Positions 16,746 to 41,674 of a stretch of 64,000 bases of DNA are shown piece by piece. The DNA is from an uncultured bacterium (GTDB lineage: Bacteria > Eisenbacteria > RBG-16-71-46 > CAIMUX01 > WJJG01). Each line of letters opens with the position of its first letter. The first letter of the stretch is position 1. A program made the translations under genes and the position numbers. The notes beneath the pieces are model-generated. The model saw only the letters and a list, made by a program, of their open reading frames with translations, did no database searches and was not told the origin of the DNA. Where the stretch lies: assembly GCA_964482205.1 (NCBI GenBank), contig CAYZWI010000003.1, positions 83,126-147,125 of the forward strand, read 5' to 3'.

Positions 16746-16860
16746 CGACGCGGGGCCGCAAGATCGAGCGGCTTCCGTGCGTCCGATGGGTTGGGAGCCT
16801 GACCGTTTCTGGAATCCGACACGGCTTGCGGAATCCGACGCGGCTTCGTGGAGCGGAACC

Positions 16861-18663: not shown

Positions 18664-20082
18664 TCACAGCCGTACTCGCCTCACGACGAGACAGTGGACG
18701 AGAGAATCGTGCAGCGCCTGGCCCTTGTCAGTCATCGCCGCCATCAGATACCCGCCCCCTAGAAGAACCAGCGACAGCAGCTTCAGGAGGTTGCGCATGA
18801 AAGCGCGTCGGAAGTCGACACGTCTGCCAAGTTCGTCTGTAACATGGATATTCATGATGCGCTTGCCGGGTGTGCCCTGCCATGTGGAAATCTCAAAGAG
18901 CGCGTAGTACATCGTCAATGCCAGATACGAGCCAAGTCCAATAAGAACCAATGGTGGGACTCTTAGTCGCCAGAAAAGCAGCGCAGCCAGGAAGAAGACC
19001 GGCACAAGGATCACGCCGTCCAACAAGAGCGCGGAGCCTCTCAGCCAGAACCCGGCATGGGAGAGGGGCAACTCCCCCGGGACCGCGTTCGCCCCAAGGT
19101 CTCCGACAACCTGGGATCCGCGGAGAGCCGGAGGGTTGCCTTGCCCTTCCGGGCAGGGAAGCGGGAACAAGTTGCCGCGGTGCCTGTCTTTGTCCTCCTG
19201 CCAGGCCGCGATGGGAGGTGGCGGAGCTGCCGTGTGCCAACTCGTGGCGCGTTCCAGCGCATGCCGGAAAGCCCGGATCGAAGGGAAGCGATGCTCCGGC
19301 CGTTTGGCCATGGCCTTCCACACAAGAGACTCCAATCCGGGATCGATGTTCGAAAGCAGACCCGACAGTCGCGGAGGTGCTTCCTCCATGATCTTGCGCA
19401 TGAGCAGATCATCTGTATCCGCTTCGAAAGGTCTTACCCCCGTGATCATCTCGTACATCATCACTCCAAGTGCATAGATGTCCGAGCGAGCGTCGACTTC
19501 CCGGGGATTTTGAAGTTGCTCGGGCGACATGTACGCCAAGGTACCAGGTTTCATCGCCGTCGCCGCCTTCAGCTCCTCGGAGCCAAGGACCCTTGCGACT
19601 GCAAAGTCGGTCACCTTGGCCACTAGACCGGCATCCGATCTGGTGACGAGGATATTGCTGGGTTTCAGATCCCGGTGGACGAGCTCCAATCCGTGGGCCT
19701 TTTCGAGCGCGGAGAGCACCTGGAAGGTGATGGCCATGACCTGACCAAGGGGCAGGCCGCCTCCCTGGCGGACGATCAGCTGATCCACCGGCAGGCCGTC
19801 CACATATTCCATGACGATGCCTATCGCCTGCTCATCTTCGACGAAATCGAGGACCTTCACGACATGCGGATGGACCAATTGCGCTTGAATGCGGGCCTCG
19901 GCCCGAAAGCGATCAAGCACCGCGGCGTCCTGACGGAAATGGGAATGCAGACACTTGATGGCCACCATCCTGCCGCCGTCGGGGTCCTGAGCACGGTACA
20001 CAGTGCCCATCCCGCCCTTTCCCAGAACGCCGAGGACTTGGTAGCGCCCAATTCGATCCGGGTCTGTATGCATTCCGCTCAT
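18664..20082 (-). CDS. Ser/Thr protein kinase with C-terminal RDD-family membrane domain
   Basis: Hanks kinase motifs are present (GKGGMGTVY, VAIK, HRDLKPSNIL, DFAVA, MSPEQ). The C-terminal 150 aa form an RDD-like polytopic membrane domain. The start MSGMHTDPDRIGRYQV overlaps the upstream kinase stop as TGATG. Confidence 0.8.
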   Translation of the reverse strand: MSGMHTDPDRIGRYQVLGVLGKGGMGTVYRAQDPDGGRMVAIKCLHSHFRQDAAVLDRFRAEARIQAQLVHPHVVKVLDFVEDEQAIGIVMEYVDGLPVDQLIVRQGGGLPLGQVMAITFQVLSALEKAHGLELVHRDLKPSNILVTRSDAGLVAKVTDFAVARVLGSEELKAATAMKPGTLAYMSPEQLQNPREVDARSDIYALGVMMYEMITGVRPFEADTDDLLMRKIMEEAPPRLSGLLSNIDPGLESLVWKAMAKRPEHRFPSIRAFRHALERATSWHTAAPPPPIAAWQEDKDRHRGNLFPLPCPEGQGNPPALRGSQVVGDLGANAVPGELPLSHAGFWLRGSALLLDGVILVPVFFLAALLFWRLRVPPLVLIGLGSYLALTMYYALFEISTWQGTPGKRIMNIHVTDELGRRVDFRRAFMRNLLKLLSLVLLGGGYLMAAMTDKGQALHDSLVHCLVVRRVRL

Positions 20083-21761
20083 CAGGGGTCCCTGACCACA
20101 TCGCTTTCGGTTTCGGAAACGATTTTCCATCCCGCCGAAAACCGGCGGAACCAAAGCTGTTGTTTTTCGCTCGCACGGTATCGCTTGCCGTTTGCCTGCA
20201 AGATGTCCCAGGATTTGGCGAAGGTGACGAGGGCATGGTCCGCCCCCAGAAAGTCGATGGAGACCTCGCGCACATCGTACCGAAGAACCTCTTCGAAGCG
20301 CGCAAGGGCTTTCCGCTTGTCGTCGCGGATACGGGCATTGGAGGCGTTCGTCCACCCGAAGTACCGTTCCACCTGGTCCGCATAGCACCCCATATGGGTC
20401 TCGAGGTCCCGGTTCACGAGGGAGCGCCGCCAAGTTTCGACCACTCCCAGAATCGCCTGACGGTCCTGCTCATGGGACGACGAAACAGGGTTCTCGGTCG
20501 CCACCTGCCGGACCGGCGTAGAGGAGGCGGATTGCGTGCTAGCCCGTGGAACATCCTGGATGATTGCACGTTGGCTGGCCCCTCCGTCGGAGCCTCGGAT
20601 GACAAGCACAACCATGATGACAACGATGAGTAGACCCAGGCCCAGGAGCCACACGGGAAACGGCCGGGAAGCGGAGGGACGGGAACTCCCCTCCAAAGTG
20701 GAATGATTCGTCCAGCGCTGGAGCCTCCCCTCGACGGCAGGTGCTTCGGCATCGATCGCCGCTGACCGTGACCGGCTCTCAAGCGGGAATCCGGTCCCTT
20801 CTCTCGCCCCAGCGCTCGACCGGCTGGACTGAGCCAGACCGGGAGGAGGCTGCGTCCCCGCACTCACGGAGCGCACACCCCTCGGCTCCACTTTTCCTTC
20901 GGGCGCAGCGCGATCCGTGCCTACGACCGCACCCACCGCAAGCGCCTTCAGGGCCTGCAAAAACTCCTCCGCGCTCTGGAAACGCGCGTCCGGGTTCTTC
21001 GCCATCGCCTTCAGAATGACCGCCTCAAAACCCGGGAAGATTCCCCGATAGAATCTGCTGGGCGCAGGCGCTTCCTCCGAGATGATCGCTTGCATGATTG
21101 AGAAATCCGTATCCGCATCGAAGGGAACTCTGCCCGTGGCCATCTGATAGAGAGTGACTCCCAACGAATAGATGTCGGACCTGCGGTCCACGTCTCGAGC
21201 TGCGCGAATCTGTTCGGGAGGCATGTACCAGAGCGTTCCCATCTTGGCTCCTGTCGCCGTTCGCCCCTTGCCTCCTTCCAGGATCTTGGCCACTCCGAAG
21301 TCCATTACTCGAGCCAGCGTTTCTCCCTTTACCACACTCAGCATGATGTTCGACGGCTTCAGGTCCCGATGGACCACCCCCTGGTCGTGGGCGTATCCCA
21401 CGGCCCGGAGAACCTGATCCATGATTGCCATACACCGCTCGAAGGGAATCGGGCCCGTTTCCTCGGCGATCACCTTGTCCAACGGTCGACCGTCGACATA
21501 TTCCAGCATCAAGCAGAGGAGTTCCCCCTCCTCGATGAAGTCATAGACATGGACGATGTTGGGATGGCTCAGTCGCGCCTGGATCTGCGCTTCCGCACGA
21601 AACCGTTCCCGCACCTGACAATCCCGGGCGAAGAAGGAATGGAGGACTTTCACAGCAACCGGCCGATCGAAACGCAAATCGGTCCCCCGGAAAACGGTCC
21701 CCATGCCGCCGTCGCCAAGGAACGCATCGATCCGATACGGCCCGATCTGCTCTCCGATCAT
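20082..21761 (-). CDS. Receptor-type Ser/Thr protein kinase with extracytoplasmic NTF2/SnoaL-like domain
   Basis: The N-terminal kinase domain has GDGGMGTVF, VAVK, HRDLKPSNIM, DFGVA. A single TM helix (WLLGLGLLIVVIMVVLVI) follows. The C-terminal domain (ILGVVETWRRSLVNRDLETHMGCYADQ...WFRRFSAGWKIVSE) is NTF2-like. Confidence 0.8.
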   Translation of the reverse strand: MIGEQIGPYRIDAFLGDGGMGTVFRGTDLRFDRPVAVKVLHSFFARDCQVRERFRAEAQIQARLSHPNIVHVYDFIEEGELLCLMLEYVDGRPLDKVIAEETGPIPFERCMAIMDQVLRAVGYAHDQGVVHRDLKPSNIMLSVVKGETLARVMDFGVAKILEGGKGRTATGAKMGTLWYMPPEQIRAARDVDRRSDIYSLGVTLYQMATGRVPFDADTDFSIMQAIISEEAPAPSRFYRGIFPGFEAVILKAMAKNPDARFQSAEEFLQALKALAVGAVVGTDRAAPEGKVEPRGVRSVSAGTQPPPGLAQSSRSSAGAREGTGFPLESRSRSAAIDAEAPAVEGRLQRWTNHSTLEGSSRPSASRPFPVWLLGLGLLIVVIMVVLVIRGSDGGASQRAIIQDVPRASTQSASSTPVRQVATENPVSSSHEQDRQAILGVVETWRRSLVNRDLETHMGCYADQVERYFGWTNASNARIRDDKRKALARFEEVLRYDVREVSIDFLGADHALVTFAKSWDILQANGKRYRASEKQQLWFRRFSAGWKIVSETESDVVRDP

Positions 21762-21800
21762 CTGCTGGCTCTCTCCATCTCCCGGGTCACTCGTGGATCC

Positions 21801-22898
21801 CTATCTGTAGCGGCGCACTTCGAGAATTCTGCGATTGCCGATCAAGCTGGTGCTCCCCACGCCCACGCCCTCTTCCGGCGATGCGCGGAGAAAGGTCGTG
21901 CCACCGTCCAAGAGAATGACCGGCTGGGATCGCCCGGGATCGAGAGTCGAAAGAAAGGCGATATCTCCTACCTTCGCGGAATCGACTGACACGACATTGC
22001 CCCAATCGGCTAGCGCTTCGAGCGTCCGCGGCGCCCTGATTCCCGCCAGGCGAAAGAAAAGATGAACCAGCCCTTCGGCATCCATCGCCGCCATGCTGTT
22101 CGCCCCGGTCTGGTACCGCGTCCTACGGAACTTGCGAACCGCTTCGATGGCGTCAGGTATGGGCAATGGTTCTGATAGCGGCGCCACGTTCGCTCGATCG
22201 ACGCGCACACTTGGACCGCCCGGAACCGCCAACGTCACCGAGGAATCCGCGGCACTCTGCCCCCGAGGCCGGCCTACCCCGGTCGCCCGCAGGCGGGCCC
22301 CGCACGGCAGAAAGATCCCTTGATCGCACGGCACGCCGGGAGCGGCGACGACGGTGAACGAATCCCCGGAATCCTCCATCCCATGATCGCTCTGCTCCGG
22401 CGCCAGTGCGGTGACCGGCACCCAACCCGTCGGGTCACCTCGTTCCCCAAAGCGCACTTCCCTCCAGGCCCCTTGGCTGGCAAGCACCTCCACCCGGTCC
22501 CCGACCAAGAGCTGGGCCAGACGTGAGGAGGACTCCGACGGGCTCTCGAACACGTCACTCCAGGGTCGCTGCCTGTCCTGCAACCGCAGCACGGCCTTTC
22601 CCCGCCAGGGCGCGTCCGTCGCACGTTGGGCCGCGTCAGCGGATTGTGCCGGCCCGGTTCCGCCCGTATGCCCGGAGGAGTCGCCCGCCGATCGAGGCGG
22701 GGCACCTGTCGCGCGGCTTGCGTTGGAATCGAGACCGAGCGATTCGAGGCCCGGCCCCACAAGAAACCGCCCGATCCCCGTGCCGACCGCGAAGACCAGA
22801 ACCAGGGAGACGAAGGCTCCCAAGGCCGGGCGCCGCCCCCGGGTCTTCCCGAGACGTCTGTTGCGCTGCCCATGCCGCTTCATTGGGAGTAGATCCAC
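21801..22898 (-). CDS. NlpC/P60-like pseudo-peptidase with SH3b-like domain (catalytic Cys and His replaced)
   Basis: N-terminal TM/signal anchor. An SH3b-like segment (GDRVEVLASQGAWREVRFGERGDPTGWVP) precedes a C-terminal NlpC/P60 fold. In place of the FDCSGLV catalytic motif it reads MDAEGLV. In place of the His motif it reads SQPVILLDGG. Confidence 0.6.
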   Translation of the reverse strand: MDLLPMKRHGQRNRRLGKTRGRRPALGAFVSLVLVFAVGTGIGRFLVGPGLESLGLDSNASRATGAPPRSAGDSSGHTGGTGPAQSADAAQRATDAPWRGKAVLRLQDRQRPWSDVFESPSESSSRLAQLLVGDRVEVLASQGAWREVRFGERGDPTGWVPVTALAPEQSDHGMEDSGDSFTVVAAPGVPCDQGIFLPCGARLRATGVGRPRGQSAADSSVTLAVPGGPSVRVDRANVAPLSEPLPIPDAIEAVRKFRRTRYQTGANSMAAMDAEGLVHLFFRLAGIRAPRTLEALADWGNVVSVDSAKVGDIAFLSTLDPGRSQPVILLDGGTTFLRASPEEGVGVGSTSLIGNRRILEVRRYR

Positions 22899-25129
22899 TG
22901 GTAGTTCTTATAGTCTCCGAGCACTCGCTTGATGTAGTTCCTGGTCGCCTGAAATGGGATGTTCTCGATGAATTCGTCCACAGGCTGATCGGCCGGCTTG
23001 GCGTTCCACCACTTTTCAACCTGCTCGGGTCCGGCGTTGTAACTGCAGATAGCGGGGAACCAGTCGCCTCCAAACCGCTGGACCATCTTGGCCAGATAGT
23101 ACGTTCCGTACCGAATGTTCGTCTGGGGATTGACCAGGTCGGCTTTCCCCGGCACCGGAAGGCCCCTTTCCTTCGCAATCTGCTCGGCCGTTCCGGGCAT
23201 GAGCTGCATCAGGCCAATCGCACCCACACCGGACGTGACCACAGGGGAAAACTTGCTCTCGTTGCGAATCAACGCCGCCGTCAGGTGAGCGTCGATTCCG
23301 TTCTTGAGAATGCCCGTTTCCTCGATGGCTTGCCTGATCTCCTCCTTGTAGTTGTACGGATAGAGGATTTGCCAGAACTCGATAGGAACCAAGTCGCCGT
23401 TCCTGGATCCGGACAGCACGAAGTCCCGATAGCTGTCGACCAGCATGTCGATCGCTTCCCAACTCTGACCTGCTCGACTGTATAAGTAGGCCAAGGAGAG
23501 CCTCAGCTTCGGATCGGTCGCCGCGGAAGGAACGGAGGCCAGTTCCGCCGCGGCGAATTCGTACAGTCCGATCGCGCGCAGATTGACCGCCCGGGCATAC
23601 CCTCCCTCTCCAGGGGGGCCGGCCGCGGCATCCGTGAGCTTGTCGAAGGCGGGAAAGGGCTTGAGGTTTCCGAACTGTCTCGGTTGTTGGCCCAGAGCCA
23701 GCAGGTTCTCGACGGCCCGATGTCCGTAGTAGTCCTGGGGGTACTCGCGGACGAGCTGCTGGTACAGCTCGATCGCCCCCGCCCGATCGGAATCCGCGGT
23801 GAAGCGAGCAATCCAGTAGAGAGCCGCTTTCTTATAGCCGGTGTCTGAATGTTCAGCCAACAAGCGGCGCATGGTGGCCACCGCCGCTGCCGTGTTGCCT
23901 TGATTCCTCTGGAACCAGGCCAGCTTCCAGAGCGCGTCATGGGCCACGTCGCTCTCTCCCGCCATTCCGACCACCTGCTCGAGCACCGGCAGCGCCTGTT
24001 CGATGCTCACGTCGTTTCCCAGATGCACGCCGTAGGCGTACATCGCATCCGCGGCGCTGGAACTTCCCGGATATTGCCCCTTCAGGAATTCCGCCCATTG
24101 GCGGATGGCATCGGTGTTGCCCGAGGTCCGGCGGAGCGCCGCGATAGCCGAGAGCACGGCCGATGGAACGCAATTCGACGAGGGATACCGCGATCGCAAG
24201 TCCCGGACGGTCTGCACGCAAGCATCGTTTTCTCGAAGATCGTAGAGGCACTGCGCGCGCGTCAGAAGAACTTCGTCGGTTCGCGGGTCGCCCGGATGGG
24301 AGCCCAGGAAGGTCTCGATCTCTTGCTTCATGGCGCTCTTCAGACCTGCGGCCCCCAGGCTTGATATGAACTCAAACCGCCGCGCGGAAGACATTGTGCG
24401 AGGCGCGAGCCCCGCCGAGCGTTCGAGGTCGCGGGCGCGATCTCTGGCCTGCACGGCCCAGGGGCTGCGCGGAGTGTCGAACCATGTCGTTTCGTAAAGG
24501 CGGTGGGCTTCAGCCGCGTTCCCCGCCTGGCGCTCCGCCTCGGCGGTCAGCCAACGAGCCTCGTGGATTTCCCGGGCCTTCGGCCAGCGAGTGAGAAAGG
24601 TCAACCCGGCGGACGCCGCCTGGGGCCATCGCTGTTGGGCGCTTGCCAACTTGAGAAGCAGGAATTGCGCTTCCCTCTCCAGGACCGGGCTTCCGCCCGG
24701 TCCCGTTGCGCTCAAGATCTCCTGCAGGCGATCGAAGGCCAGGGTGTACTGGTCCTGCAGCCCACCTTCGATCACTGCGCGGGCGACGAGCACTTTTCCG
24801 TACTCGGGCCCCACCGTGCCCGCTGAAGCGCGCTCCAGATAAGGGAGAGCTTCCGAATAGCGGCGCATGCCGATCAACATGTTGCCCAGCACGAGAGCCG
24901 CACGGTCACCGACCGCGTCCTTTTCGTACGTCTCCACGACCCCCTGCAGCAGGTCGACGGCCTGAGATGTCTCCCCTCGGCTGAAGACATCCAAGGCCGT
25001 GTCGATGTCGGTTGGGCTGGACTTGCCCCTCGAGGCTTTCTCCTCCTCTTGGCAGGATGTCCCGGCAAGGATCAAGCAGACGGACAGGAAGATCAGCGTA
25101 GGCAGCGAACGCACGCCACGAGCGGACAT
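22880..25129 (-). CDS. Soluble lytic murein transglycosylase (Slt70-like)
   Basis: Signal peptide MSARGVRSLPTLIFLSVCLILAGTSC. A long alpha-superhelical N-terminal region precedes a C-terminal SLT domain (IRNESKFSPVVTSGVGAIGLMQLMPGTA, SYNAGP). The listed ORF is extended to 25195. I start the gene at the Met of MSARG. Confidence 0.8.
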   Translation of the reverse strand: MSARGVRSLPTLIFLSVCLILAGTSCQEEEKASRGKSSPTDIDTALDVFSRGETSQAVDLLQGVVETYEKDAVGDRAALVLGNMLIGMRRYSEALPYLERASAGTVGPEYGKVLVARAVIEGGLQDQYTLAFDRLQEILSATGPGGSPVLEREAQFLLLKLASAQQRWPQAASAGLTFLTRWPKAREIHEARWLTAEAERQAGNAAEAHRLYETTWFDTPRSPWAVQARDRARDLERSAGLAPRTMSSARRFEFISSLGAAGLKSAMKQEIETFLGSHPGDPRTDEVLLTRAQCLYDLRENDACVQTVRDLRSRYPSSNCVPSAVLSAIAALRRTSGNTDAIRQWAEFLKGQYPGSSSAADAMYAYGVHLGNDVSIEQALPVLEQVVGMAGESDVAHDALWKLAWFQRNQGNTAAAVATMRRLLAEHSDTGYKKAALYWIARFTADSDRAGAIELYQQLVREYPQDYYGHRAVENLLALGQQPRQFGNLKPFPAFDKLTDAAAGPPGEGGYARAVNLRAIGLYEFAAAELASVPSAATDPKLRLSLAYLYSRAGQSWEAIDMLVDSYRDFVLSGSRNGDLVPIEFWQILYPYNYKEEIRQAIEETGILKNGIDAHLTAALIRNESKFSPVVTSGVGAIGLMQLMPGTAEQIAKERGLPVPGKADLVNPQTNIRYGTYYLAKMVQRFGGDWFPAICSYNAGPEQVEKWWNAKPADQPVDEFIENIPFQATRNYIKRVLGDYKNYQWIYSQ

Positions 25130-25157
25130 AGCTCTTTCCTCCTTGCTTGCAGGACTG

Positions 25158-26561
25158 TCAGGGAAAGGAGACGGAGATCGTCTTCCCGGGTTCAATGCTC
25201 ACTTTCTTCTCTTGCTGGTGATGGCCCCACCAAACCTTGACCGTGTGTCCCGTGGCCGACAAGTTGAGAAATTCATGTTTCGTGGAGTTCTTCCCGCTGG
25301 AATAGAAATCGTCCACATAGGCACGACCGGCCGGTTGCATGTTCACAATCAGGGTTCCGGTGGTCGGCACCTGGCCTCCGCCTGTGTCTTCGATCGGGTC
25401 AGGGTCGTGTCCATTCGGGATCACCAAAATCGCCACGACTGCCGCCGCGATCAAGAGCACGATCGGAACCAGGTAGCGAAGTGGCGATTGGCCCTTTCTC
25501 GGCGCGAGGCCCTGCACCTTCTGCGCTGGTGCGTCTGGTGGCCTTGGCCGGAGGTCGTTTCCCGCTCCCTCGCCCGGCGCTCCCCGCCCACCTTCCGGAG
25601 TCGGGGCCGCCACCTGCCCGGTGGCAACCGAAACGCCTGGTGGGACCGCCATGCCTGGACCCGCCTGTTCCTTTGAAGCCGCGGCGGCGCTCCCCGGCGT
25701 CTCGGCCGGCGCCTCGGGCACCAGTGGCGGAAGTGTCCCCGCGTCCAGAAGCGCCTCGAGAAACTCCTCGCAGTTTGAAAAACGCTTGTCGGGGTCCTTG
25801 GCCATGGCGCGCAGAATCACCTGCTCGAACTTCTTGGAGATATGGGGATATCGCTCACTGGGCAACGGCGGATCCTGCGTAATGACCTTGGTCATCACCT
25901 CGTATTCGCTGTCGCCCTGGAATGGCAGGACGCCCGTCGCCATTTCATAGAGCGTGCAACCGAGCGAGTAGATGTCGGACCGCGCATCGACATCCTTCGG
26001 CGAGCGGATCTGCTCCGGGGAGCTGTAGAAGAAGGTCCCCAGCTTCGCGTCCGGATTCGTTCGCCTCTTTTCATCGCCGAGGATCTTTGCGATCCCGAAG
26101 TCCATGATCTTCGCATGCACGCGCTTGCCGAACCATTGAATCATGATGTTGGAGGGTTTGATGTCCCGGTGGATCAATCCCTTGGCGTGGGCGAAGCCGA
26201 GTGCGTTCAGGACCTGGGACATGATCTCGCAGCACATCGGGTAGGGCATCGGGCCGGTCACTTCGGCCAGAACCTCCGTCAGGCTCTTGCCGTCGACGTA
26301 CTCCATGACAATGGCGGCCACGTGCTCGTCAAGAAGGAAGTCGTGAACGGTGACGATGTTGGGATGCTGCAGGCGAGCCTGGATGACCGCCTCGCTCTTG
26401 AACCGCTCCAAGGTCGCCGGATCGCGCGCGAGGTGCTCATGAATGACTTTGATCGCGACCGGAGAGTCGAAGCGCGGGTCCCGTCCCTTGTAGACGGTTC
26501 CCATGCCTCCGTCACCGATCACGCCGGTAATCTCGTAGCGCCCGATCGACTCCATCTCCAC
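25158..26561 (-). CDS. Receptor-type Ser/Thr protein kinase with extracytoplasmic PEGA domain
   Basis: Kinase motifs GDGGMGTVYKG, VAIK, HRDIKPSNIM, DFGIA. A Pro-rich linker and a TM helix (YLVPIVLLIAAAVVAILVI) follow. The C-terminal PEGA-like beta domain is GTLIVNMQPAGRAYVDDFYSSG...HTVKV. Confidence 0.8.
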   Translation of the reverse strand: MEMESIGRYEITGVIGDGGMGTVYKGRDPRFDSPVAIKVIHEHLARDPATLERFKSEAVIQARLQHPNIVTVHDFLLDEHVAAIVMEYVDGKSLTEVLAEVTGPMPYPMCCEIMSQVLNALGFAHAKGLIHRDIKPSNIMIQWFGKRVHAKIMDFGIAKILGDEKRRTNPDAKLGTFFYSSPEQIRSPKDVDARSDIYSLGCTLYEMATGVLPFQGDSEYEVMTKVITQDPPLPSERYPHISKKFEQVILRAMAKDPDKRFSNCEEFLEALLDAGTLPPLVPEAPAETPGSAAAASKEQAGPGMAVPPGVSVATGQVAAPTPEGGRGAPGEGAGNDLRPRPPDAPAQKVQGLAPRKGQSPLRYLVPIVLLIAAAVVAILVIPNGHDPDPIEDTGGGQVPTTGTLIVNMQPAGRAYVDDFYSSGKNSTKHEFLNLSATGHTVKVWWGHHQQEKKVSIEPGKTISVSFP

Positions 26562-26591
26562 TCCGCAATTGACGTCCGCCTCGCCAGCCCT

Positions 26592-28427
26592 CTACTTGCC
26601 GCGCCTCGTCCGCGGGGCCGGCTTGGTCTGCCCGGTCGGCCGGGTCTGCCCAGCCGACCCGGTCTTCCTGATGTCCGCGGTGGCTGGTTTGCCCGCATCC
26701 GTTCTCTGGCCCGCTCGCAAGGCGGCGGGCTGCGCCTGAGCAGCCGCCGTCGGCTGAGCCGCCGGCTCTACCGCGCCTTGCTGCTGAACACGATCCGCTG
26801 GAGCCGATCGCGCACGAGGAGTGTTCGCGTCAACATCCGAATCGTCCGAGGCTCTCCGTGACAACCCTTGGATATCGTCAGGCAGGTGCTGCCGGAGCGT
26901 GTCGCTCTTTGCCCGTGCGATCCACTCGACTGGCTCGAGTCTCATCGAAGAGGCCACGGTCCGCGCCCAGACTCCGAACACCACCAAGCCGGTGCCGCTG
27001 GAGGCAATGGCTGCAATCCTCCCGTCCGGCAAGAGATCGACATGCACCGAGGCGCCCGTCGTCGGGAGAACATTCCCATCAAGACGAAGGGGCTCGGGCG
27101 CCTGGTCCATTGTGAGCTCGGATCCTAAAGACCGGACTCGGAGCAGAAGGTAGTGCGTTCCCGGTCCGAGAGCGCCTTGCGGCAAACCCGATGCCGACGA
27201 GGATGGATCGACATGCAATTGGCCGCACTGAGAAAGAAGACTGATCAGGTCCCCCTTCTCTTCTCCGACGTACCGGCGCATACGCAGAAGACACGCGCTG
27301 GCGGTGTCGGACGGATCGGGCAGGTAGAAACCACAGAGCGCCACCAGATCGGTTTGGGGAGAAGCCGGAGCGAACCGAATGCTCATGTACGGAGCTCCCG
27401 CCGCCTGGTCCTGCAGAATCAGCCGGAGCTCGCCGCCGAAGTCATCTCCCGTGTCGGCCGGCCCTCGAATCACGTCATTCAGCGTCTGGAATGCGCCAGT
27501 CGACCAGGCCGCTGAGGGAGGCCTGTGGGCCGAATACAGGTAGTACGCCGAGCCCACGATGATACCCAGCAAGAGAGCCGCCGCAGCGGGAATCCAGTGC
27601 CACGTGAGTTTCCGGCGCCCGGCGGGTCCGAAATCCGGAACCGGCGCTTGGCTGCGCATGCGCGACCACGTGCCTCGCGGTCGTCCGCGATGGATTATCT
27701 GCACGGTGGCGTTGTCGTGACCACCGCGCTGATTCGCCAAGTCAACGAGGCGCTTGCATGCTCTCTGGGGTCCGTATTGCCGGCTCATCCAGGCCATTTC
27801 CTTGGGTGAGACGGCGTCATACAGCCCGTCCGTGCACATGATGAGGCTGTCGCCTTCCTCCAATCGGATTGGCATCGTGCAGATGTCTGGATCGATGTCG
27901 GAGGCCGGTCCGATCACGCGCTCGAGGACGTGTCGCTTGGGATGCTCACGCGCCTGTTCCACCGTGATCAGGCCGTCGTCGATCATTCTTTGCACGAGGG
28001 TATGATCCCGGGTGACTTGGGTGGCTTCGTCTTCGTGCAAATGGTAGATGCGGCCGTCTCCGATGTGACCCCACCAGGCACGATTCTCCTCCACCACGAC
28101 CACATCGAGGGTGGCGCCCATGTTGGCGAGCTCCGGCCTTTCTTCCTTGACGCTCTGGCAGGCAAAATTCGCTTCCCGCATGGCCCGGGCAATCAGCCTG
28201 CGGGGAGTCTGCCCCAAGCCTTTCTGGAACACCGCGTGCACCGCCTGCACGACAGTGCGGCTCGCTTCTCGCCCGCCCGACGCCCCACCCATTCCATCGG
28301 CGACCACGAACAGTCGCTGGGAGCCGATTTGGCAATAGAGATGGTAGTCCTCATTCGTCTCTCGAACTCTGCCGACATCACTGTGGTTGCTGACAAGCAG
28401 CGGGATCTGGCGCCGGAACAGGCTCAT
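26592..28427 (-). CDS. PP2C-family Ser/Thr protein phosphatase, membrane-anchored with extracytoplasmic C-terminal domain
   Basis: PP2C motifs are present (SDVGRVRETNEDY, FVVADGMGG, MCTDGL, GGHDNATV). A TM helix (WIPAAAALLLGIIVGSAYYLY) is followed by a periplasmic region of about 300 aa. Confidence 0.85.
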   Translation of the reverse strand: MSLFRRQIPLLVSNHSDVGRVRETNEDYHLYCQIGSQRLFVVADGMGGASGGREASRTVVQAVHAVFQKGLGQTPRRLIARAMREANFACQSVKEERPELANMGATLDVVVVEENRAWWGHIGDGRIYHLHEDEATQVTRDHTLVQRMIDDGLITVEQAREHPKRHVLERVIGPASDIDPDICTMPIRLEEGDSLIMCTDGLYDAVSPKEMAWMSRQYGPQRACKRLVDLANQRGGHDNATVQIIHRGRPRGTWSRMRSQAPVPDFGPAGRRKLTWHWIPAAAALLLGIIVGSAYYLYSAHRPPSAAWSTGAFQTLNDVIRGPADTGDDFGGELRLILQDQAAGAPYMSIRFAPASPQTDLVALCGFYLPDPSDTASACLLRMRRYVGEEKGDLISLLSQCGQLHVDPSSSASGLPQGALGPGTHYLLLRVRSLGSELTMDQAPEPLRLDGNVLPTTGASVHVDLLPDGRIAAIASSGTGLVVFGVWARTVASSMRLEPVEWIARAKSDTLRQHLPDDIQGLSRRASDDSDVDANTPRARSAPADRVQQQGAVEPAAQPTAAAQAQPAALRAGQRTDAGKPATADIRKTGSAGQTRPTGQTKPAPRTRRGK

Positions 28428-29959
28428 CAGACCTCCCCACGGAACTGAAGCACGACGCCGCCAATACGAAACCGCTGCCCGGACGTCAAGAGCGTGGGTT
28501 GATCGATCCGCTCGCCCCCGGCGAGGTACGTGCCATTCGTGCTTTGCAGGTCCTCCAGCCAGAACTGATGGTCGCGGAATTCGATGACCGCGTGGTGGGA
28601 GGAAACGCGCTCTTCATCCAAGACGATGTTGTTGTCCAGGGCCCGGCCCAACGACGTGCGCGCCGGCAGCAAGGGCAGATTCGATCCGGCCAGCGGGCCG
28701 CTTTCCACGTGCAGCGAGCCGGCGCGATAGGCCTGCAGGACCGATGTCCCGGGATCGTACATGGTCCGTTGCTTGGGCCGCGCAGCCGGCGGGGCGGCGG
28801 GGCGAGCATCCGAGCCGGACTGGACGACTCGCTGTTCCATCTCCTTGATGCTGGCCGTCGCCTGCGCAAGCTGGCCTTCCAGCTTCTGAAACGCGTCGGC
28901 CTGCTGCCTCTTTTCCTCTTCCACGCGATGCATCTCGCCCTGATACGCGAGGTGACGGGCGCGCGATCTGAACCAGAGCAACGCCGAGCACGCCGCAACG
29001 CCCACGAGGGCGATTCCGACGTAGAGCAGCCAAGGCGTCTTTTGGGGAGGGATCGCATGAAGGGGCACGCGGAAGGAGAAACTCCGCCGGACCTGGGTGG
29101 TCGGCATCTTCACCTCGAGCACGGCCGCATGTTCGGAACCGTCCGCCGGCAAGCTCGAAGTCCAGACGAACTCCCAGCGCGATTCCAGGTTGGTCCGCAT
29201 GGCCGCAAGCTTGTCCTTCCACCGCTGCCCGCTCTCGAAAGGCAGGAAGACTCCTCCCGTTTCGGTGGACAGCCGCTGAACGTTGCGCCAGTCCGTCTGG
29301 CTGCCGGACTTGATGCCGATCCCCATGATGCTGGCCCCCACCTTGGCGGCCATTTCCCGGCAGGATTCCAGGGTGTAGGCCCCCCCCTCGTTCTTCCCGT
29401 CCGAGATCAGCACGAGCACCTTGCGTTCGGGCAACCCTTCCTGCTGGAGCAACTCGAGCCCGCGCACGACGCCGTAGAACAGCTCCGTGCGCTTTCCGGG
29501 CGTCTCCATTTCACGCATCGCGGCAACCAAGGCCGAGCGGTCAACCGCGAAATCGATGAGTTGCTGCTGATCATCGTGAAAGGCCACGAGGGCACAGCGG
29601 TCGCCGTCCTCCAACCGCCCCACGAAATCGACCAAGGCAGTTCTCACCTCCGGCATCACTTCCTTCATCGAACCGGAGACGTCGACTGCAAACACGAACC
29701 CAATGCCGTTGACCAGACCGATCTTGCGCAATTCGCCCTTCACCGGCTGGTCCTTCTCCAGCACCGTCACATCCTCGACGTTCAGGCTGCTGACCAGCTC
29801 GCTGTGCTCGGACATGACTTCGAACCGAATGGCCATGCGGGGATATCCGGTCGTGTCGATGCCGGCATTCTGCAGCTCGCACACTGCGGCGTGGACGCCC
29901 GGCACAACAGAGAGCGCTACGCAGGCGGCAATCGACAGGCGGAGACAAGGCATCATCAC
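28427..29959 (-). CDS. vWA-domain / FHA-domain transmembrane protein
   Basis: Signal peptide MMMPCLRLSIAACVALSVVPGVHA. The vWA MIDAS motif is FVFAVDVSGSMKE...LISDG. A TM helix (WLLYVGIALVGVAACSALLWF) and a coiled coil follow. The C-terminal FHA domain is VSSHHAVIEF...STNGTYL. The stop overlaps the PP2C start. Confidence 0.8.
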   Translation of the reverse strand: MMMPCLRLSIAACVALSVVPGVHAAVCELQNAGIDTTGYPRMAIRFEVMSEHSELVSSLNVEDVTVLEKDQPVKGELRKIGLVNGIGFVFAVDVSGSMKEVMPEVRTALVDFVGRLEDGDRCALVAFHDDQQQLIDFAVDRSALVAAMREMETPGKRTELFYGVVRGLELLQQEGLPERKVLVLISDGKNEGGAYTLESCREMAAKVGASIMGIGIKSGSQTDWRNVQRLSTETGGVFLPFESGQRWKDKLAAMRTNLESRWEFVWTSSLPADGSEHAAVLEVKMPTTQVRRSFSFRVPLHAIPPQKTPWLLYVGIALVGVAACSALLWFRSRARHLAYQGEMHRVEEEKRQQADAFQKLEGQLAQATASIKEMEQRVVQSGSDARPAAPPAARPKQRTMYDPGTSVLQAYRAGSLHVESGPLAGSNLPLLPARTSLGRALDNNIVLDEERVSSHHAVIEFRDHQFWLEDLQSTNGTYLAGGERIDQPTLLTSGQRFRIGGVVLQFRGEV

Positions 29960-30175
29960 TTCTGCCCTCCCTGGTCAAGGACCCGAACAGTGCCTCGGGC
30001 GTGAGCAATCGGTCCCTGGGATGCGCGACGGCCACCCGACTGGCCAGGAAACAGGCCATGCCGGATCTCGACGAGGACGTTCTGGCTCGTGGGTCGACGG
30101 GAGGATTCCGGGCATGTCGCAGGCGCGAAACGGATCCTCCCGACCTGGCAGACGCGCATCTGTCAACCGCCCCGG

Positions 30176-30925
30176 TTAGATCATGTAGATCGTGAAGACC
30201 GAGCGCTTCCCGAGTTCGATCGAATCCCGGTTCTGCAAGAGAACGGCCCCCTCCGCAAACAGATCCTGCTGATTGACCTTGGTGCCGTTCATGGAATCAC
30301 AGTCCTTGATGTAGAACTGACCGTCCTGAAACCGAATGACCGCATGCCGTCCCGAAATCGTGGGATCCCAGTCGACGCAGATCTCACACTCTCTTTCGGA
30401 TCCGATGAGATTCCGGCCCTCCCGCAGTCGAAAATCTCGACCCGTCGGCCCTTGGGAGAAAGTCACCAACCAACCCACCAGCTTGCGCTCGGAAGAAGAA
30501 GCCCGGCCTGCCGGGAGACCCGGTTGCTCCGGTGCCGCCTGGACTCCCGGATCGTAGACCGTCTTCCCCTTGTCGCTCCGACCTCCGCCACCCCCTTCCA
30601 TGACCGTGCGAGGCTTCGGAGAGGATCCTCGGGCCTGGTCGCCGCGATCTCCGGTCGACGGCTGCTCCAGGATCGTGGCCCCTTTGGTGAACGCCCCTGG
30701 AGGCCCAACGGGAGGATTGGCGGAAGTGCCCGGGCTTTGGTTTCGATGGCGCGCGGTTGGCGGACAGTATTGGCACTCCGTCCAGGTCGGGTCCATGATA
30801 TGCCCGTTTGGGCAGAGCCTGGCATTCAGCTGGATTCCGCACCGTTCGCAGTAGCCATTGATTGGTTTCACTTCTGCCCGGCAGTTGGCACAGTACATGG
30901 TGCCCCTCCATTTCACTTGCCTCAC
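30176..30925 (-). CDS. FHA-domain protein with N-terminal zinc-ribbon
   Basis: Cys4-type zinc ribbons are present (CANCRAEV...CERCG and CPNGH...CQYC). A Pro/Gly-rich linker leads to a C-terminal FHA domain (GRHAVIRFQDGQFYIKDCDSMNGTKVN). This is the first gene of the minus-strand operon. The true start may be MYCANC at 30898. Confidence 0.7.
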   Translation of the reverse strand: MRQVKWRGTMYCANCRAEVKPINGYCERCGIQLNARLCPNGHIMDPTWTECQYCPPTARHRNQSPGTSANPPVGPPGAFTKGATILEQPSTGDRGDQARGSSPKPRTVMEGGGGGRSDKGKTVYDPGVQAAPEQPGLPAGRASSSERKLVGWLVTFSQGPTGRDFRLREGRNLIGSERECEICVDWDPTISGRHAVIRFQDGQFYIKDCDSMNGTKVNQQDLFAEGAVLLQNRDSIELGKRSVFTIYMI

Positions 30926-31376
30926 GGTATAGAGAACTGAGCAAGTTCCATACTAGGTAATAGTGACGCAAGGCGCAACCATGCGAAACTTGCCCGGTGG
31001 TGGCCCCCGATCGCCATTTCGACGGCCTGCCCCTGCCGGCACGAACCTCCCCCTGGGTTTCAGAAGCTTTTCCGATGTCGCAGGCGACGCAGCTGCGTCA
31101 CTTGCGCCTTCCCGGCAGAAGCTATTCCCTTCATTTGGAATTCCTTGTCGGCGTATCTTCGCGAAGACTCTGCATCCTGGCCACGCCAGCGGCGGTCGGT
31201 TGCCGCATGCGGCTCGTTATCCGCATCTGCGCAAAAAGATTGACTCTCCTCACGGTTGCGTTCCACTATCAGAGACGATCAGGACATGGCTGACATCGAG
31301 TGTTGCGATTCCGTAGCATTTGCGGTCTTCGGTCGTTCGTGTCGCTTCACAACCGTTCAACGCGAGGGTCCCCTCT

Positions 31377-32624
31377 ATGGAAGGCGGCAGCATCAATCCG
31401 GCCTTGATTGCGCTCTTGGTCTTTGTGATCGCCCTCGTCATCTACCTCATCGCCGGCTTTCGCAGGATTCCACTGGGTGCTGTGGGACTCGTCGTCACGA
31501 TGGGGAGGCGGACGGGCGATGTGCGCTCGGAGGGAAACACCTGGCTAGCTCGTTTCTTCCAGAGCGTCGTTGTCCTCTTCATTCGTGAACGCCAAGTCGA
31601 CATTCCCACGGCGCAGTACTACACATCCGACCGCGTTCGAATCGCTTTCAAGACTACGATCCGGGTTTCCGTCGCCGATGCAGCCGCATTGTTCAGCCAG
31701 GGACCTGGCACCTACGGTCCGTTTACCAGAGAAGGCTATGGAAACACCGAAAGTGGCTCGGAAGAGGCGAACATCGCTTTACGGAATTTGGTCCAAAACT
31801 CGATTCGCGAGACAATCCAGGCGATGCGCATCGATGAAGTGATGTTTGGGGGATCGTCTCAAAACTCCGTGCGGGAACTAATCCGCCAGGCACTCGCCCG
31901 AACGGCCAAGCGATGGGGCCTGGAAGTGCTCGAGGTTTGGCTGACGGATGTAGATGCGGATAATGCCGAGGTGAAAAAGGCCGTTCAGGCAGAAGTCCAA
32001 GCCACCATGGAGGGGCGCGGGCAACTGGCCAAATTCGAAGTGAAGGTTGCCCAGGGAGGGCTCTTCCAGAAGGTGGCCATGGATGTGGCCAATCTCATCT
32101 ACGACCGGACGGGAAACCGGGTGAGCCCCGACCAAGTGATGAATTTCCTGATTGGCTTCTATCGGAACGAACGCGCGCTAGATGTCGCCATGGCCGCGAG
32201 CAAGGGGACCAATGATATTCTGCAGGCGTTCTACATGCATCATGTGGGCATGCCTCTTCCCGATGCCCCGCCAGTCTTGCCGGGTTTGCAGAACGCTCCT
32301 GGAGCGGGTTTGTTTCTTGGCGGTAGTCCCGGCATCCCCTTCCTGCAAGGCTCCTGGATCATTGGCCGTGAAGGCACGATTGAAATTGACAGCCCAGGTG
32401 TGTCTCGAAGGCATGCGCGTTTGGACGGAAACGGTAGTCAGTACACGCTCACCGACCTCGGATCTTCGAATGGGACTTTTGTCAACAACGCCATGCTGAC
32501 GCCCAACTCCCCGATCCTGGTGCAACCAAGTGATTCGGTCCGGTTCGGACAGCGAGTATCGACGACAGTCGCCAGTCTCGTCCAGGCGGTCGGACGAGGA
32601 CGCTTGGATGTCCAGCCAGGATAG
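31377..32624 (+). CDS. SPFH (band-7/stomatin-like) domain protein fused to a C-terminal FHA domain
   Basis: An N-terminal TM helix (ALIALLVFVIALVIYLIAGF) is followed by an SPFH core (IPLGAVGLVVTMGRR...YYTSDRVRIAFKTTIRVSV) and a coiled coil. The C-terminal FHA domain is GSWIIGREGTIEIDSPGVSRRHARLD...LTDLGSSNGTFVNN. The ATG at 31377 lies in frame within the listed ORF. The gene is divergent from the kinase operon. Confidence 0.7.
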   Translation: MEGGSINPALIALLVFVIALVIYLIAGFRRIPLGAVGLVVTMGRRTGDVRSEGNTWLARFFQSVVVLFIRERQVDIPTAQYYTSDRVRIAFKTTIRVSVADAAALFSQGPGTYGPFTREGYGNTESGSEEANIALRNLVQNSIRETIQAMRIDEVMFGGSSQNSVRELIRQALARTAKRWGLEVLEVWLTDVDADNAEVKKAVQAEVQATMEGRGQLAKFEVKVAQGGLFQKVAMDVANLIYDRTGNRVSPDQVMNFLIGFYRNERALDVAMAASKGTNDILQAFYMHHVGMPLPDAPPVLPGLQNAPGAGLFLGGSPGIPFLQGSWIIGREGTIEIDSPGVSRRHARLDGNGSQYTLTDLGSSNGTFVNNAMLTPNSPILVQPSDSVRFGQRVSTTVASLVQAVGRGRLDVQPG

Positions 32625-39222: not shown

Positions 39223-40125
39223 CTACCGCCCGCTCTCTTCCCGCGCCCAATCGACCGCTCTCCGAATCGCGCGAATGTGTTCGGGGGTCGTGCCGCAGCA
39301 GCCGCCGATGATCTGCGCTCCCGCCGCGATCAACTCGGGAACGCGCGCGGCCATGAATTCCGGCGTCTCGGAATAGACGGGCCGTCCCTCTTCCAACGAG
39401 GGCAGCCCCGCGTTCGATTGAATCACGATCGGCCGCTCGCTCGCCGCGCGGAAGGCGCGCGCGATGGCGACCATCTGCTCGATCCCGTTGCCGCAGTTCG
39501 AGCCGATCACATCTGCGCCCGCCGGCGCGAGCCCGGCCGCCGCCTGCTCGATGCTGTTGCCCATGATCGTGAAGAAACCGCGCGGTGTGGGATCGAAGGT
39601 CATCGACGCGATCACGGGGAGGCCGGGCGCTGCTTCCCGGGCCGCCTCCACCAGCAGCTTCGCCTCCGCGAGATCGGTCATCGTCTCGATGATGATCGCA
39701 TCGGCCCCCGCTTGCGTGAGCACGCGAATCTGACGCGCGAATCCATCTTTGAGCTCCGCCGGCTCGGCATCGCCATACGGCTTCAGCATGCGGCCGCTCG
39801 GCCCGCAGCAAGCCGCCACGCACGCGCGAACGCCCGCCACTTCGCGCACAGCTTCCACGGCAATGCGATTGATCTCTTCCATGCGGCTATCGAGGCCGTA
39901 GAAGGCGAGCTTCGCGGGAGAGCCGCCGAAGGTGTTCGTCTCGAGGATCTGTGCGCCGGCATCGAGGTAGAGTTGGGCGATCTCTTTCAGAATCTCCGGA
40001 CGCTCGAGGTTCACCGACTCGGGCGGCGAGCCCGGCGGAAGACCGCGCGCGATGAGGAGCGTTCCCATGGCGCCGTCGCAGACGAGGACTTCTCCGCTTC
40101 GCAACCGCTCGAGAAGCGTTGGCAT
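39223..40125 (-). CDS. Homocysteine-binding S-methyltransferase domain protein (MetH N-terminal-module-like, PF02574)
   Basis: N-terminus LLERLRSGEVLVCDGAMGTLL. The zinc-ligand cysteines are conserved: IGSNCGNG and GGCCGTTPEHIRAI. Confidence 0.8.
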   Translation of the reverse strand: MPTLLERLRSGEVLVCDGAMGTLLIARGLPPGSPPESVNLERPEILKEIAQLYLDAGAQILETNTFGGSPAKLAFYGLDSRMEEINRIAVEAVREVAGVRACVAACCGPSGRMLKPYGDAEPAELKDGFARQIRVLTQAGADAIIIETMTDLAEAKLLVEAAREAAPGLPVIASMTFDPTPRGFFTIMGNSIEQAAAGLAPAGADVIGSNCGNGIEQMVAIARAFRAASERPIVIQSNAGLPSLEEGRPVYSETPEFMAARVPELIAAGAQIIGGCCGTTPEHIRAIRRAVDWAREESGR

Positions 40126-40180
40126 GCGATCCTCCGATTGCGCGACTTCCCGGAAGTCCTCGAAGGGCGGAGCCTGATCC

Positions 40181-40813: not shown

Positions 40814-40827
40814 CAATCTTCCTTTCC

Positions 40828-41619: not shown

Positions 41620-41674
41620 CCGCTCTGCGGCATCGCGACTCCGCTTCGAATCCGTTCCGTGGCCGCGACTGCCC

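Follow-up and report, generated by a model that had tools for sequence, protein, structure and literature searches.

The 64,000-nucleotide stretch of contig CAYZWI010000003.1 analysed here (the window) contains, at positions 31377..32624 of the plus strand, a gene whose product joins an SPFH domain to a C-terminal FHA domain and is referred to below as SPFH-FHA. Judged by its domains, SPFH-FHA is both a member of the SPFH superfamily and a canonical FHA protein, and comparison with its relatives points to two ordinary domains in an undescribed, evolutionarily fixed combination. The gene is divergent from an operon encoding membrane-bound Ser/Thr kinases, a PP2C phosphatase and further FHA proteins, among them a small protein with an N-terminal zinc ribbon (Zn-ribbon-FHA) whose linker carries a conserved array of threonine motifs. 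The reading favoured here, to which we assign a probability of roughly 0.6, is that SPFH-FHA would form a cytoplasm-facing SPFH oligomer that docks onto a local phosphothreonine network.

The SPFH-FHA open reading frame (ORF) encodes 415 residues plus a stop codon, starts with ATG and has a GAGGG Shine-Dalgarno-like sequence 5' of the start. The identical 415-residue protein (P0001) has been called in a public metagenome-assembled genome (MAG; GCA_016294925.1, contig JAEAME010000018.1) and is found on 14 more metagenome contigs. A sequence-only reading of the window had described the product as a membrane-anchored SPFH/band-7 domain followed by an FHA domain with the canonical G-R...S-x-x-H...N-G motifs, and had proposed Pfam searches for both domains; the description holds in each of its parts, and neither of the two outcomes it had named as refuting (an N-terminal domain that does not score as SPFH, or an FHA region lacking the conserved Arg/Ser/His/Asn residues) was observed. 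Residues 30-225 (31464..32051, plus strand) match Band_7 (PF01145) with 75.8 bits against a cutoff of 23.6 (E 5.7e-21), and residues 327-391 match FHA (PF00498) with 59.2 bits against a cutoff of 20.7 (E 5.4e-16). A hydropathy scan gives one hydrophobic helix only, which lies N-terminal to the SPFH domain at residues 10-28 (LIALLVFVIALVIYLIAGF; 31404..31460, plus strand) and is followed by two arginines.

A monomer model built with AlphaFold2 (AF2) on the family alignment has a mean pLDDT (predicted local distance difference test) of 81. The model orders the protein as a transmembrane helix (residues 8-26), the SPFH domain (28-194), five helices (197-225, 228-245, 251-261, 265-274 and 280-290), a disordered segment (297-318), an FHA sandwich (323-397) and a short C-terminal helix. 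From the secondary structure of the model and from Foldseek alignments, residues 197-290 (31965..32246, plus strand) are assigned as a helical extension of the SPFH domain and a putative oligomerisation or wall region. The Pro/Gly-rich segment at residues 297-318 (32265..32330, plus strand), where pLDDT is below 50, is assigned as a disordered tether, and its position is the site at which some homologues carry a Zn ribbon. Foldseek searches against the PDB returned, with a probability of 1.0, stomatin (9z7u/9oh9, E about 1e-13), prohibitin (8rrh), HflK/C (7vhq), QmcA (8z5g), erlin and flotillin, aligned over 260-325 columns (298 columns against whole stomatin chains). These matches have low TM-scores, since the chains in the solved structures are extended subunits of cages, whereas the helices fold back in the monomer model.

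The C-terminal part of the model matches FHA domains separately (CEP170 FHA, root-mean-square deviation 1.4). Pfam, alignment and Foldseek delimit this domain to residues 323-397 (32343..32567, plus strand). In 31 aligned full-length homologues, which share 40-53% identity with the protein of the window, three of its motifs do not vary: G330-R331, S343-R344-x-H346 and S363-x-N365-G366. These positions align with the IGR, SRxHA and GSxN motifs of solved FHA domains (1uht and 6hc1), and many FHA domains are found among the profile matches to the PDB. The domain retains all residues needed for phosphothreonine binding, and binding itself is predicted. The transmembrane anchor and a basic residue C-terminal to it are kept across the family (RR in the window protein, Lys or Arg elsewhere), and the residues before the anchor are not basic. 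Because basic residues follow the anchor and none precede it, the positive-inside rule predicts an N-out/C-in topology with the SPFH and FHA domains in the cytoplasm, which is also the sole orientation that would let the FHA domain reach phosphothreonine.

The fusion defines a family of its own. Among 5.8 billion proteins, a word-indexed search picked out about 35 relatives of full length, all of which have both Band_7 and FHA. When the SPFH part alone (residues 1-295) served as the query, 31 proteins were returned and every one of the 31 carried FHA. An exhaustive HMMER search of 1.84 billion 50%-identity representatives with an SPFH-only profile gave 12 clusters at E<=1e-30, nine of them full-length (402-453 residues) and all nine with FHA (seven scanned with Pfam, two already among the relatives from the word-indexed search). 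Profile scores fall from 303 bits through fragments to a protein that lacks FHA (P0125, 192 bits) and then to the level of generic SPFH proteins, about 80 bits; FHA was looked for, and not found, in longer SPFH proteins among the remote matches (P0137, P0175 and others). Since all nine full-length clusters carry FHA and the scores drop in this way, the FHA fusion is, as far as these searches reach, fixed in and defining for a small, sharply separated SPFH clade. The named sources of the homologues are Thermoanaerobaculia and Acidobacteria MAGs, and only four GTDB species representatives have SPFH-FHA. In public annotation the homologues are named 'SPFH domain-containing protein' or 'regulator of protease activity HflC'.

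Six members (P0026, P0028, P0029, P0032, P0035 and P0122) have a Zn ribbon (CPxCG...FCDxCG) between the SPFH and FHA domains. This inserted ribbon resembles the N-terminal ribbon of the small Zn-ribbon-FHA protein of the operon (CPSCGTLNP... and CPSCRTLNP..., respectively), and ribbon-bearing members are found on both sides of the root of a midpoint-rooted neighbour-joining tree. The nearest relative without FHA, the 331-residue metagenome protein P0125, consists of an SPFH domain and a C-terminal Zn ribbon (FYCSFCG...FCENCG) and ends directly past the ribbon; it could represent the ancestral architecture or a truncated gene call. Together these features are suggestive of an origin in which an SPFH gene fused to a paralogue of Zn-ribbon-FHA, followed by loss of the ribbon in several branches, that of the window protein among them. 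Two further observations concern the edges of the family. A MAG labelled 'uncultured Enterobacterales' (L011, CAZSAT010000020.1) has an SPFH-FHA gene, otherwise of Acidobacteria type, in a GC-rich context; the neighbours are an FHA-FHA-VWA ORF and OmpA-like, cytochrome-like and MopE-motif genes, and the label of the MAG looks doubtful. Two giant proteins (P0131, 5975 residues, and P0132, 4180 residues) contain 15-20 tandem stretches that match the SPFH profile at about positions 146-196, which looks like repeated use of one piece of the domain.

The gene neighbourhood was compared across 14 loci, the window and L004-L016. The sequence-only reading had raised the question of whether the fusion neighbours kinase and PP2C genes elsewhere, and for most loci it does. 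Another FHA gene adjoins SPFH-FHA in all 14, a Hanks kinase gene is found within 10 kb in 12 (the two others are short contigs of 5 and 8.5 kb), a PP2C gene is nearby in 10, and a homologue of the Zn-ribbon-FHA partner is present in 11. SPFH-FHA is divergent from the FHA/kinase operon, across 69-478 bp, in four loci (the window, L006, L007 and L015). In eight others (L004, L005, L008-L010 and L012-L014) it is the last cistron, 17-53 bp past the preceding gene, in an operon ordered PP2C, Zn-ribbon-FHA, FHA-trypsin, STK, a protein of unassigned type, STK, Gly-zipper and SPFH-FHA, where STK is a Ser/Thr kinase. That the neighbourhood persists through such rearrangement is good evidence for functional coupling and makes co-expression likely. 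The eight loci in which SPFH-FHA ends the kinase operon also lend plausibility to the co-regulation, via a shared divergent promoter region, that had been suggested from the sequence of the window. Pfam annotation of the neighbourhoods of the window and 10 homologous loci gave no NfeD gene.

Several proteins encoded next to SPFH-FHA at other loci lack a counterpart in the window. In the type-B operons (L004, L005, L012, L013 and L014), the gene directly upstream of SPFH-FHA encodes a conserved exported Gly-zipper protein of 240-347 residues, and the two kinase genes flank a gene for another conserved protein (386-454 residues, no Pfam match); no homologue of either was found in the window. The same is true of the proteins encoded downstream of SPFH-FHA in L006, L007 and L016. 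In L007 (7092-7886) and L016 (5525-6364) a Zn-ribbon-bearing SPFH-FHA is followed by homologous membrane and helical proteins of 264 or 279 residues that have no Pfam match and share 24.5% identity (E 6e-15). In L015 (3120-4877, plus strand), the locus whose SPFH-FHA gene is closest to that of the window, a 585-residue TIR-FHA protein of the CAP12/PCTIR type is encoded directly downstream, which hints at a possible connection with conflict systems.

In the window, the divergent operon consists of eight co-directional genes on the minus strand over 18664-30925, separated by short gaps or joined by overlapping stop and start codons. A 450-bp region shared with an eight-gene kinase operon had been proposed from the sequence, and the region (30926..31376) is 451 bp long if the longest ORF start (30925) is taken as its border and 478 bp long if the database-called start (30898) is. 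Nearest to SPFH-FHA is the gene for Zn-ribbon-FHA (30176..30898), a soluble protein of 240 residues as called in which Pfam (DZR and FHA) and an AF2 model place the Zn ribbon at residues 1-45, a linker at about 50-135 and the FHA domain at 140-240. It is followed by VWA-FHA (28427..29959), for which Pfam and the transmembrane scan indicate a signal or anchor, an extracytoplasmic VWA domain, a transmembrane segment (310-328), a coiled region and a cytoplasmic FHA domain. The next genes encode the PP2C phosphatase (26592..28427; PP2C_2, E 1.7e-20), with a transmembrane segment at 279-297 and an extracytoplasmic tail of about 310 residues, and STK1 (25158..26561; Pkinase, E 4.8e-55), a Hanks-type Ser/Thr kinase with a transmembrane segment at 363-381. 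Two exported peptidoglycan hydrolases come after these, a TPR-SLT lytic transglycosylase with an N-terminal anchor (22880..25195; SLT, E 3.4e-29) and an SH3-NlpC/P60 endopeptidase (21801..22898). The operon ends with STK2 (20082..21761), which has a transmembrane segment at 370-388 and an extracytoplasmic CaMKII_AD/NTF2-like domain, and STK3-RDD (18664..20433), a Ser/Thr kinase fused to an RDD membrane domain with three transmembrane segments.

The three kinases and the three FHA proteins named above are the only ones in the window. By hydropathy, nearly all of these are membrane proteins, and their topology is consistent. The kinases and PP2C have their catalytic domains on the N-terminal side of their own transmembrane segments, and in VWA-FHA the segment at 310-328 and then a basic stretch precede the FHA domain. 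The FHA, kinase and PP2C domains are thereby all predicted to be on one side of the membrane. The VWA domain lies between the signal anchor and the segment at 310-328, and both peptidoglycan hydrolases have N-terminal export anchors. In STK2 the region after the transmembrane helix (residues 434-550) matches the CaMKII association domain, an NTF2-like fold, just above the cutoff (23.0 against 22.1 bits) and possibly serves as a sensor. The longest ORF of STK3-RDD, from a TTG at 20433, overlaps STK2 by about 350 bp; its kinase domain begins at residue 131 and Met 118 coincides with the STK2 stop, and the true start is probably at that methionine, near 20082, which would indicate translational coupling with STK2.

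Candidate ligands for the FHA domains are found in the partner proteins. The linker of Zn-ribbon-FHA contains three motifs of the form T-phi-phi-[D/E], where phi is a hydrophobic residue: T75-I-L-E (GATILE; 30665..30676, minus strand), T98-V-M-E (30596..30607, minus strand) and T113-V-Y-D (KGKTVYDPG; 30551..30562, minus strand), the last of which is a candidate phospho-acceptor and FHA ligand. All three were delimited by alignment and motif enrichment. A copy of the same type is seen in the sequence of VWA-FHA directly upstream of its FHA domain (T399-M-Y-D in KQRTMYDPG; 28754..28765, minus strand), so that both other FHA proteins of the window share this motif just upstream of FHA. T113 is invariant in 18 Zn-ribbon-FHA homologues, within K-x-[KR]-T-V-[FY]-D-P-G, in an otherwise variable linker. 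The 12 closer homologues have 3-6 copies of the motif per linker (for example GATLLE, GRTVVE and KxKTVFDPG) and the 6 more distant ones have none or one. The pattern T-x-phi-[D/E] occurs 57 times in the 18 linkers against 2.9 expected from shuffles (maximum 11 in 2000 shuffles), and distant partners from SPFH-FHA loci, which have TRLE repeats, contain 18 motifs against 0.7 expected. An AF2 model of the partner, built with database homologues, is disordered over residues 50-135 (pLDDT below 50).

FHA specificity is set mainly by the residue three positions after the phosphothreonine (pT+3), as in pTxxD for Rad53 FHA1. The T-phi-phi-[D/E] motifs are plausible candidates for phosphorylated FHA ligands because they are conserved, centred on threonine, acidic at pT+3, located in a disordered region and encoded between kinases and FHA domains. 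Phosphorylation of the linker threonines and their binding by FHA domains are what we infer from these properties. The motif was not found in the disordered parts of SPFH-FHA itself.

Structurally characterised SPFH proteins all oligomerise, and their cages contain 16 to 44 subunits. A description of one such cage is available (PMC11260169). By analogy with stomatin, QmcA, flotillin and HflK/C, the SPFH domain and helical extension of SPFH-FHA are predicted to assemble into a membrane-attached ring or cage, which would display many FHA domains at its membrane-distal end on flexible tethers of about 25 residues. The kinases of the operon would phosphorylate the threonines of the T-phi-phi-[D/E] motifs, both the repeats in the Zn-ribbon-FHA linker and the single copy in VWA-FHA. 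The tethered FHA domains would then bind these phosphothreonines, such that kinase activity would gather the partners and, via them, the kinases, PP2C and the VWA protein that faces the envelope into a single membrane patch delimited by SPFH; PP2C would dissolve this patch. As an SLT transglycosylase and an NlpC/P60 endopeptidase are co-encoded in the window, the output of this operon is likely to be control of the remodelling of the cell envelope by these two enzymes.

Several observations weigh against the phosphothreonine-docking scaffold or limit its reach. The two operons most like that of the window (on the P0268 and P0278 contigs, JGI 3300075153), which were found via the Zn-ribbon-FHA partner (52% and 40% identity), share its core and lack SPFH-FHA. 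One of them keeps the window order Zn-ribbon-FHA, VWA-FHA, PP2C, STK, TPR-SLT and NlpC-P60, with one additional FHA gene after Zn-ribbon-FHA. Instead of SPFH-FHA these operons carry FHA-FHA-RDD, GYF-RDD, FHA-Yip1 and FHA-TM2 membrane proteins. Since the closest operons without SPFH-FHA keep the core and carry other FHA-tagged membrane proteins, SPFH-FHA is best seen, on this comparison, as one of several apparently interchangeable FHA-tagged membrane modules on a shared kinase/PP2C/Zn-ribbon-FHA core and not as an obligatory part of it. The outputs also vary by locus, with SLT and NlpC/P60 in the window and FHA-trypsin and a Gly-zipper protein in the type-B operons; because of this substitution the output is probably locus-specific, and the link to cell-wall hydrolases may be specific to the locus of the window. 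There are few threonine motifs in the juxtamembrane linkers of the kinases, which leaves the case for the kinases as direct ligands weak, and the T-phi-phi-[D/E] motif may have a different role. In the AF2 monomer model the helical extension is folded back on itself, and no member of the family comes from a cultured organism.

A broader version of the scaffold reading can be put forward only tentatively, as we consider it clearly less probable than the docking reading itself. SPFH-FHA, VWA-FHA, FHA-trypsin, FHA-RDD, FHA-Yip1, FHA-TM2 and TIR-FHA might be interchangeable modules on a Zn-ribbon-FHA hub with 3-6 kinase-targeted motifs, and an SPFH ring bearing tens of FHA domains might create a microdomain or condensate that is nucleated by kinase and dissolved by PP2C. 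If this were true, SPFH-FHA would be the first SPFH scaffold with client selection encoded by an explicit reader domain, and Ser/Thr signalling would be coupled to local control of peptidoglycan hydrolases.

Other functions have to be weighed against the phosphothreonine-docking scaffold. SPFH-FHA might instead modulate a protease or membrane quality control, with the SPFH cage enclosing or regulating a membrane protease as HflK/C does FtsH, QmcA does FtsH and stomatin does with NfeD, and with FHA adding responsiveness to kinases. Weak NCBIfam similarity to HflC, the database names that refer to HflC, the FHA-trypsin protease that is always encoded in type-B operons, and an M48 peptidase and a CHAT protein encoded nearby in L004 agree with this idea. 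However, the clusters of the window and of the other divergent-type loci contain no trypsin, FtsH, HtpX or NfeD gene, the HflC score is 21 bits against a cutoff of 134.4, SPFH-FHA is a single gene with no K/C pair, and its FHA domain demands a cytoplasmic location whereas HflK/C is periplasmic. A role of this sort is accordingly rated as unlikely, and a part in conflict or anti-phage defence as somewhat less likely again. In the latter case the kinase, PP2C, VWA and FHA proteins would be a TerY-P-like sensor and SPFH-FHA a membrane-perturbing effector or scaffold, for which there are precedents both in the VWA, PP2C and STK genes of the TerY-P triad (PMC11090510) and in the Band7-like and FHA domains that occupy the effector position in vWA conflict systems (PMC7159879). 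The TIR-FHA gene directly downstream of the closest relative, the CHAT proteins that flank two type-B operons, and the Abi genes or integrase within 6-10 kb in L012 and L005 fit as well. Nevertheless, PADLOC gave no match for SPFH-FHA, Zn-ribbon-FHA or VWA-FHA, and we rejected the cluster as a candidate defence system; PP2C matched only PDC-M21C, and the kinases only generic models (PD-T4-6, mad6 and similar). The cluster contains no AAA/MoxR gene, by which vWA-MoxR (VMAP) systems are recognised, and a scan of viral contigs found no SPFH-FHA relative. Moreover, the flanks of the cluster in the window are housekeeping and metabolic genes, and the peptidoglycan hydrolases within it are typical of envelope physiology.

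The remaining alternatives concern what the FHA domain does. It might recognise a phosphothreonine of SPFH-FHA, either in cis or on another subunit, in which case phosphorylation would govern how the cage assembles and not which clients are recruited. GarA and OdhI are precedents for cis switches of this type, and the SPFH part has invariant threonines (T46 in GRRTG, T112 in QGPGTYxPF, T176, and T190 in WLTDVDA). These four are in predicted structured elements of high pLDDT and not in disordered loops, though, and neither the disordered linker (297-318) nor the loop at 117-127 has a conserved threonine, while far better motif candidates are present in the partner proteins; we give self-regulation a slim chance. 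Slimmer still is the chance that FHA acts independently of phosphate and serves only for structure or oligomerisation, like the FHA-like domains of the YscD or EssC type. A weak Yop-YscD_cpl match (31.7 bits, under the 33.2-bit Pfam cutoff) speaks for it. Against it, the canonical residues that contact phosphothreonine are typically lost from FHA-like domains without phosphate binding, whereas G-R, S-R-x-H and N-G are invariant in SPFH-FHA across 31 sequences with an overall identity of only 40-53%. Docking of an SPFH oligomer onto phosphothreonines of the partner proteins remains the preferred reading.

Some features of the window lie outside this argument. A promoter scan of the divergent region gave a single weak sigma-70-like match (31290-31319), which was counted as no evidence, and no Rfam match was obtained in the whole window, so no RNA element was found in this long intergenic region. 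The guanine-plus-cytosine content dips to 0.595 at 30001-32000, compared with 0.61-0.68 elsewhere, and the dip is centred on the divergent region and the start of SPFH-FHA. A convergent BKACE gene borders the operon, and a HAD hydrolase gene is convergent with and downstream of SPFH-FHA. Beyond the operon, the plus strand carries the BKACE gene (17472-18626) and a WbqC-like gene (16777-17715); the minus-strand ORFs at 17448-18599 and 16675-17334 came into question as further genes of the operon but were dismissed as artefacts, being Arg-rich and antisense to the BKACE and WbqC genes. At about 39223-42600 on the minus strand, as mapped from L001, genes for an S-methyltransferase, a B12-binding corrinoid protein, a Met_synt_B12 cap domain and an MttB-family methyltransferase form a cluster that looks like a corrinoid-dependent methyl-transfer pathway.

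The searchable literature on SPFH, stomatin or Band 7 together with FHA or phosphothreonine gave no description of the SPFH-FHA fusion. FHA goes unmentioned in a 2009 survey of SPFH subfamilies in prokaryotes, and a PNAS flotillin paper that contains both terms was set aside as the co-occurrence is in its reference list only. The searched literature likewise gave no description of the T-phi-phi-[D/E] array. The family is small, its homologues are from uncultured Acidobacteriota, each domain is ordinary alone, and the functional steps proposed above go beyond sequence. How SPFH scaffolds such as stomatin, flotillin, prohibitin and HflK/C choose their clients is largely unclear despite recent cage structures. 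SPFH-FHA makes client recruitment directly testable, as a natural SPFH protein with a well-understood phosphopeptide reader beside likely kinases, a phosphatase and a ligand-bearing partner. The analysis also identifies a conserved array of short motifs in the Ser/Thr signalling of Acidobacteria.

By the tests available, SPFH-FHA falls outside the stomatin-NfeD, HflK/C, flotillin, FhaB/FipA, GarA/OdhI, TagH and TerY-P families. No NCBIfam family covers it, and the matches obtained were below threshold (37.6 against 125 bits for FhaB/FipA, 23.4 against 120 bits for TagH, and 30.2 bits against a cutoff of 200 for OdhI with the FHA domain). Its closest structural likeness is to stomatin and QmcA, which have an N-terminal membrane anchor, an SPFH fold and a helical C-terminal extension as SPFH-FHA does. 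The top Foldseek match is human stomatin (9z7u/9oh9, E 7e-14), and stomatin and QmcA are also the sequence matches when the profile is compared with the PDB. Identity to them is only 17-20%, however, and the SPFH-FHA family stands more than 200 bits apart from all other SPFH proteins. SPFH-FHA loci also lack the NfeD partner of stomatin, and SPFH-FHA has an FHA domain added at its C-terminus, in some members together with a Zn ribbon. HflK/C differs in the hflC score, in being a pair and in its periplasmic location as against the predicted C-in topology of SPFH-FHA. Flotillins such as FloA and FloT resemble the proposed function, in that an SPFH scaffold concentrates signalling proteins in a membrane microdomain. 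Bacterial flotillins act as platforms for signalling kinases, and PMC11222466 is among the papers that the literature search listed. Flotillins select clients without a dedicated reader domain, whereas SPFH-FHA has a built-in phospho-reader. SPFH-FHA has no Flotillin C-terminal domain, its Pfam matches being to Band_7, Band_7_1 and FHA-type models only, and its helical region of only about 95 residues contrasts with the long EA-rich coiled coil of flotillins.

The surrounding operon has partial counterparts of its own. The VWA domain of PpkA from the T6SS (type VI secretion system) faces the periplasm. Both the fhaA-fhaB-pstP-rodA-pbpA-pknA-pknB cluster of actinobacteria and the T6SS Fha-PpkA-PppA genes place FHA proteins, PP2C and membrane Hanks kinases in one operon tied to envelope machinery, like the operon of the window. 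Neither has an SPFH component, and the envelope genes of the window are hydrolases (SLT and NlpC/P60) instead of synthases or T6SS genes. The TerY-P triad similarly encodes VWA, PP2C and STK together (PMC11090510), but the VWA protein of the window is a transmembrane FHA fusion and its kinases lack a C-terminal Zn ribbon or OB fold; no TerY-P model was among the best 25 PADLOC matches. The Zn-ribbon-FHA partner resembles GarA and OdhI in being a small FHA protein with a threonine motif in a disordered N-terminal segment. It differs from them in its Zn ribbon and in having 3-6 repeats of T-phi-phi-[D/E] where they have a single ETTS motif, and no metabolic enzyme targets are evident.

The nearest mechanistic precedent for the proposed patch, by analogy, is Rv1747 of M. 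tuberculosis, in which FHA/phosphothreonine multivalency clusters the protein in the membrane, PknF promotes clustering and PstP reverses it (PMC9312465; PMC8339232). Rv1747 is likewise a membrane protein with FHA domains, a disordered linker with kinase-targeted threonines and a PP2C that reverses assembly. The system of the window splits the FHA domains and the threonine-motif linker over several proteins, and its multivalency is predicted to come from an SPFH oligomer, in contrast to the tandem-FHA ABC transporter of M. tuberculosis. SPFH-FHA would thus extend the idea of membrane clustering by FHA and phosphothreonine to a far more multivalent platform.

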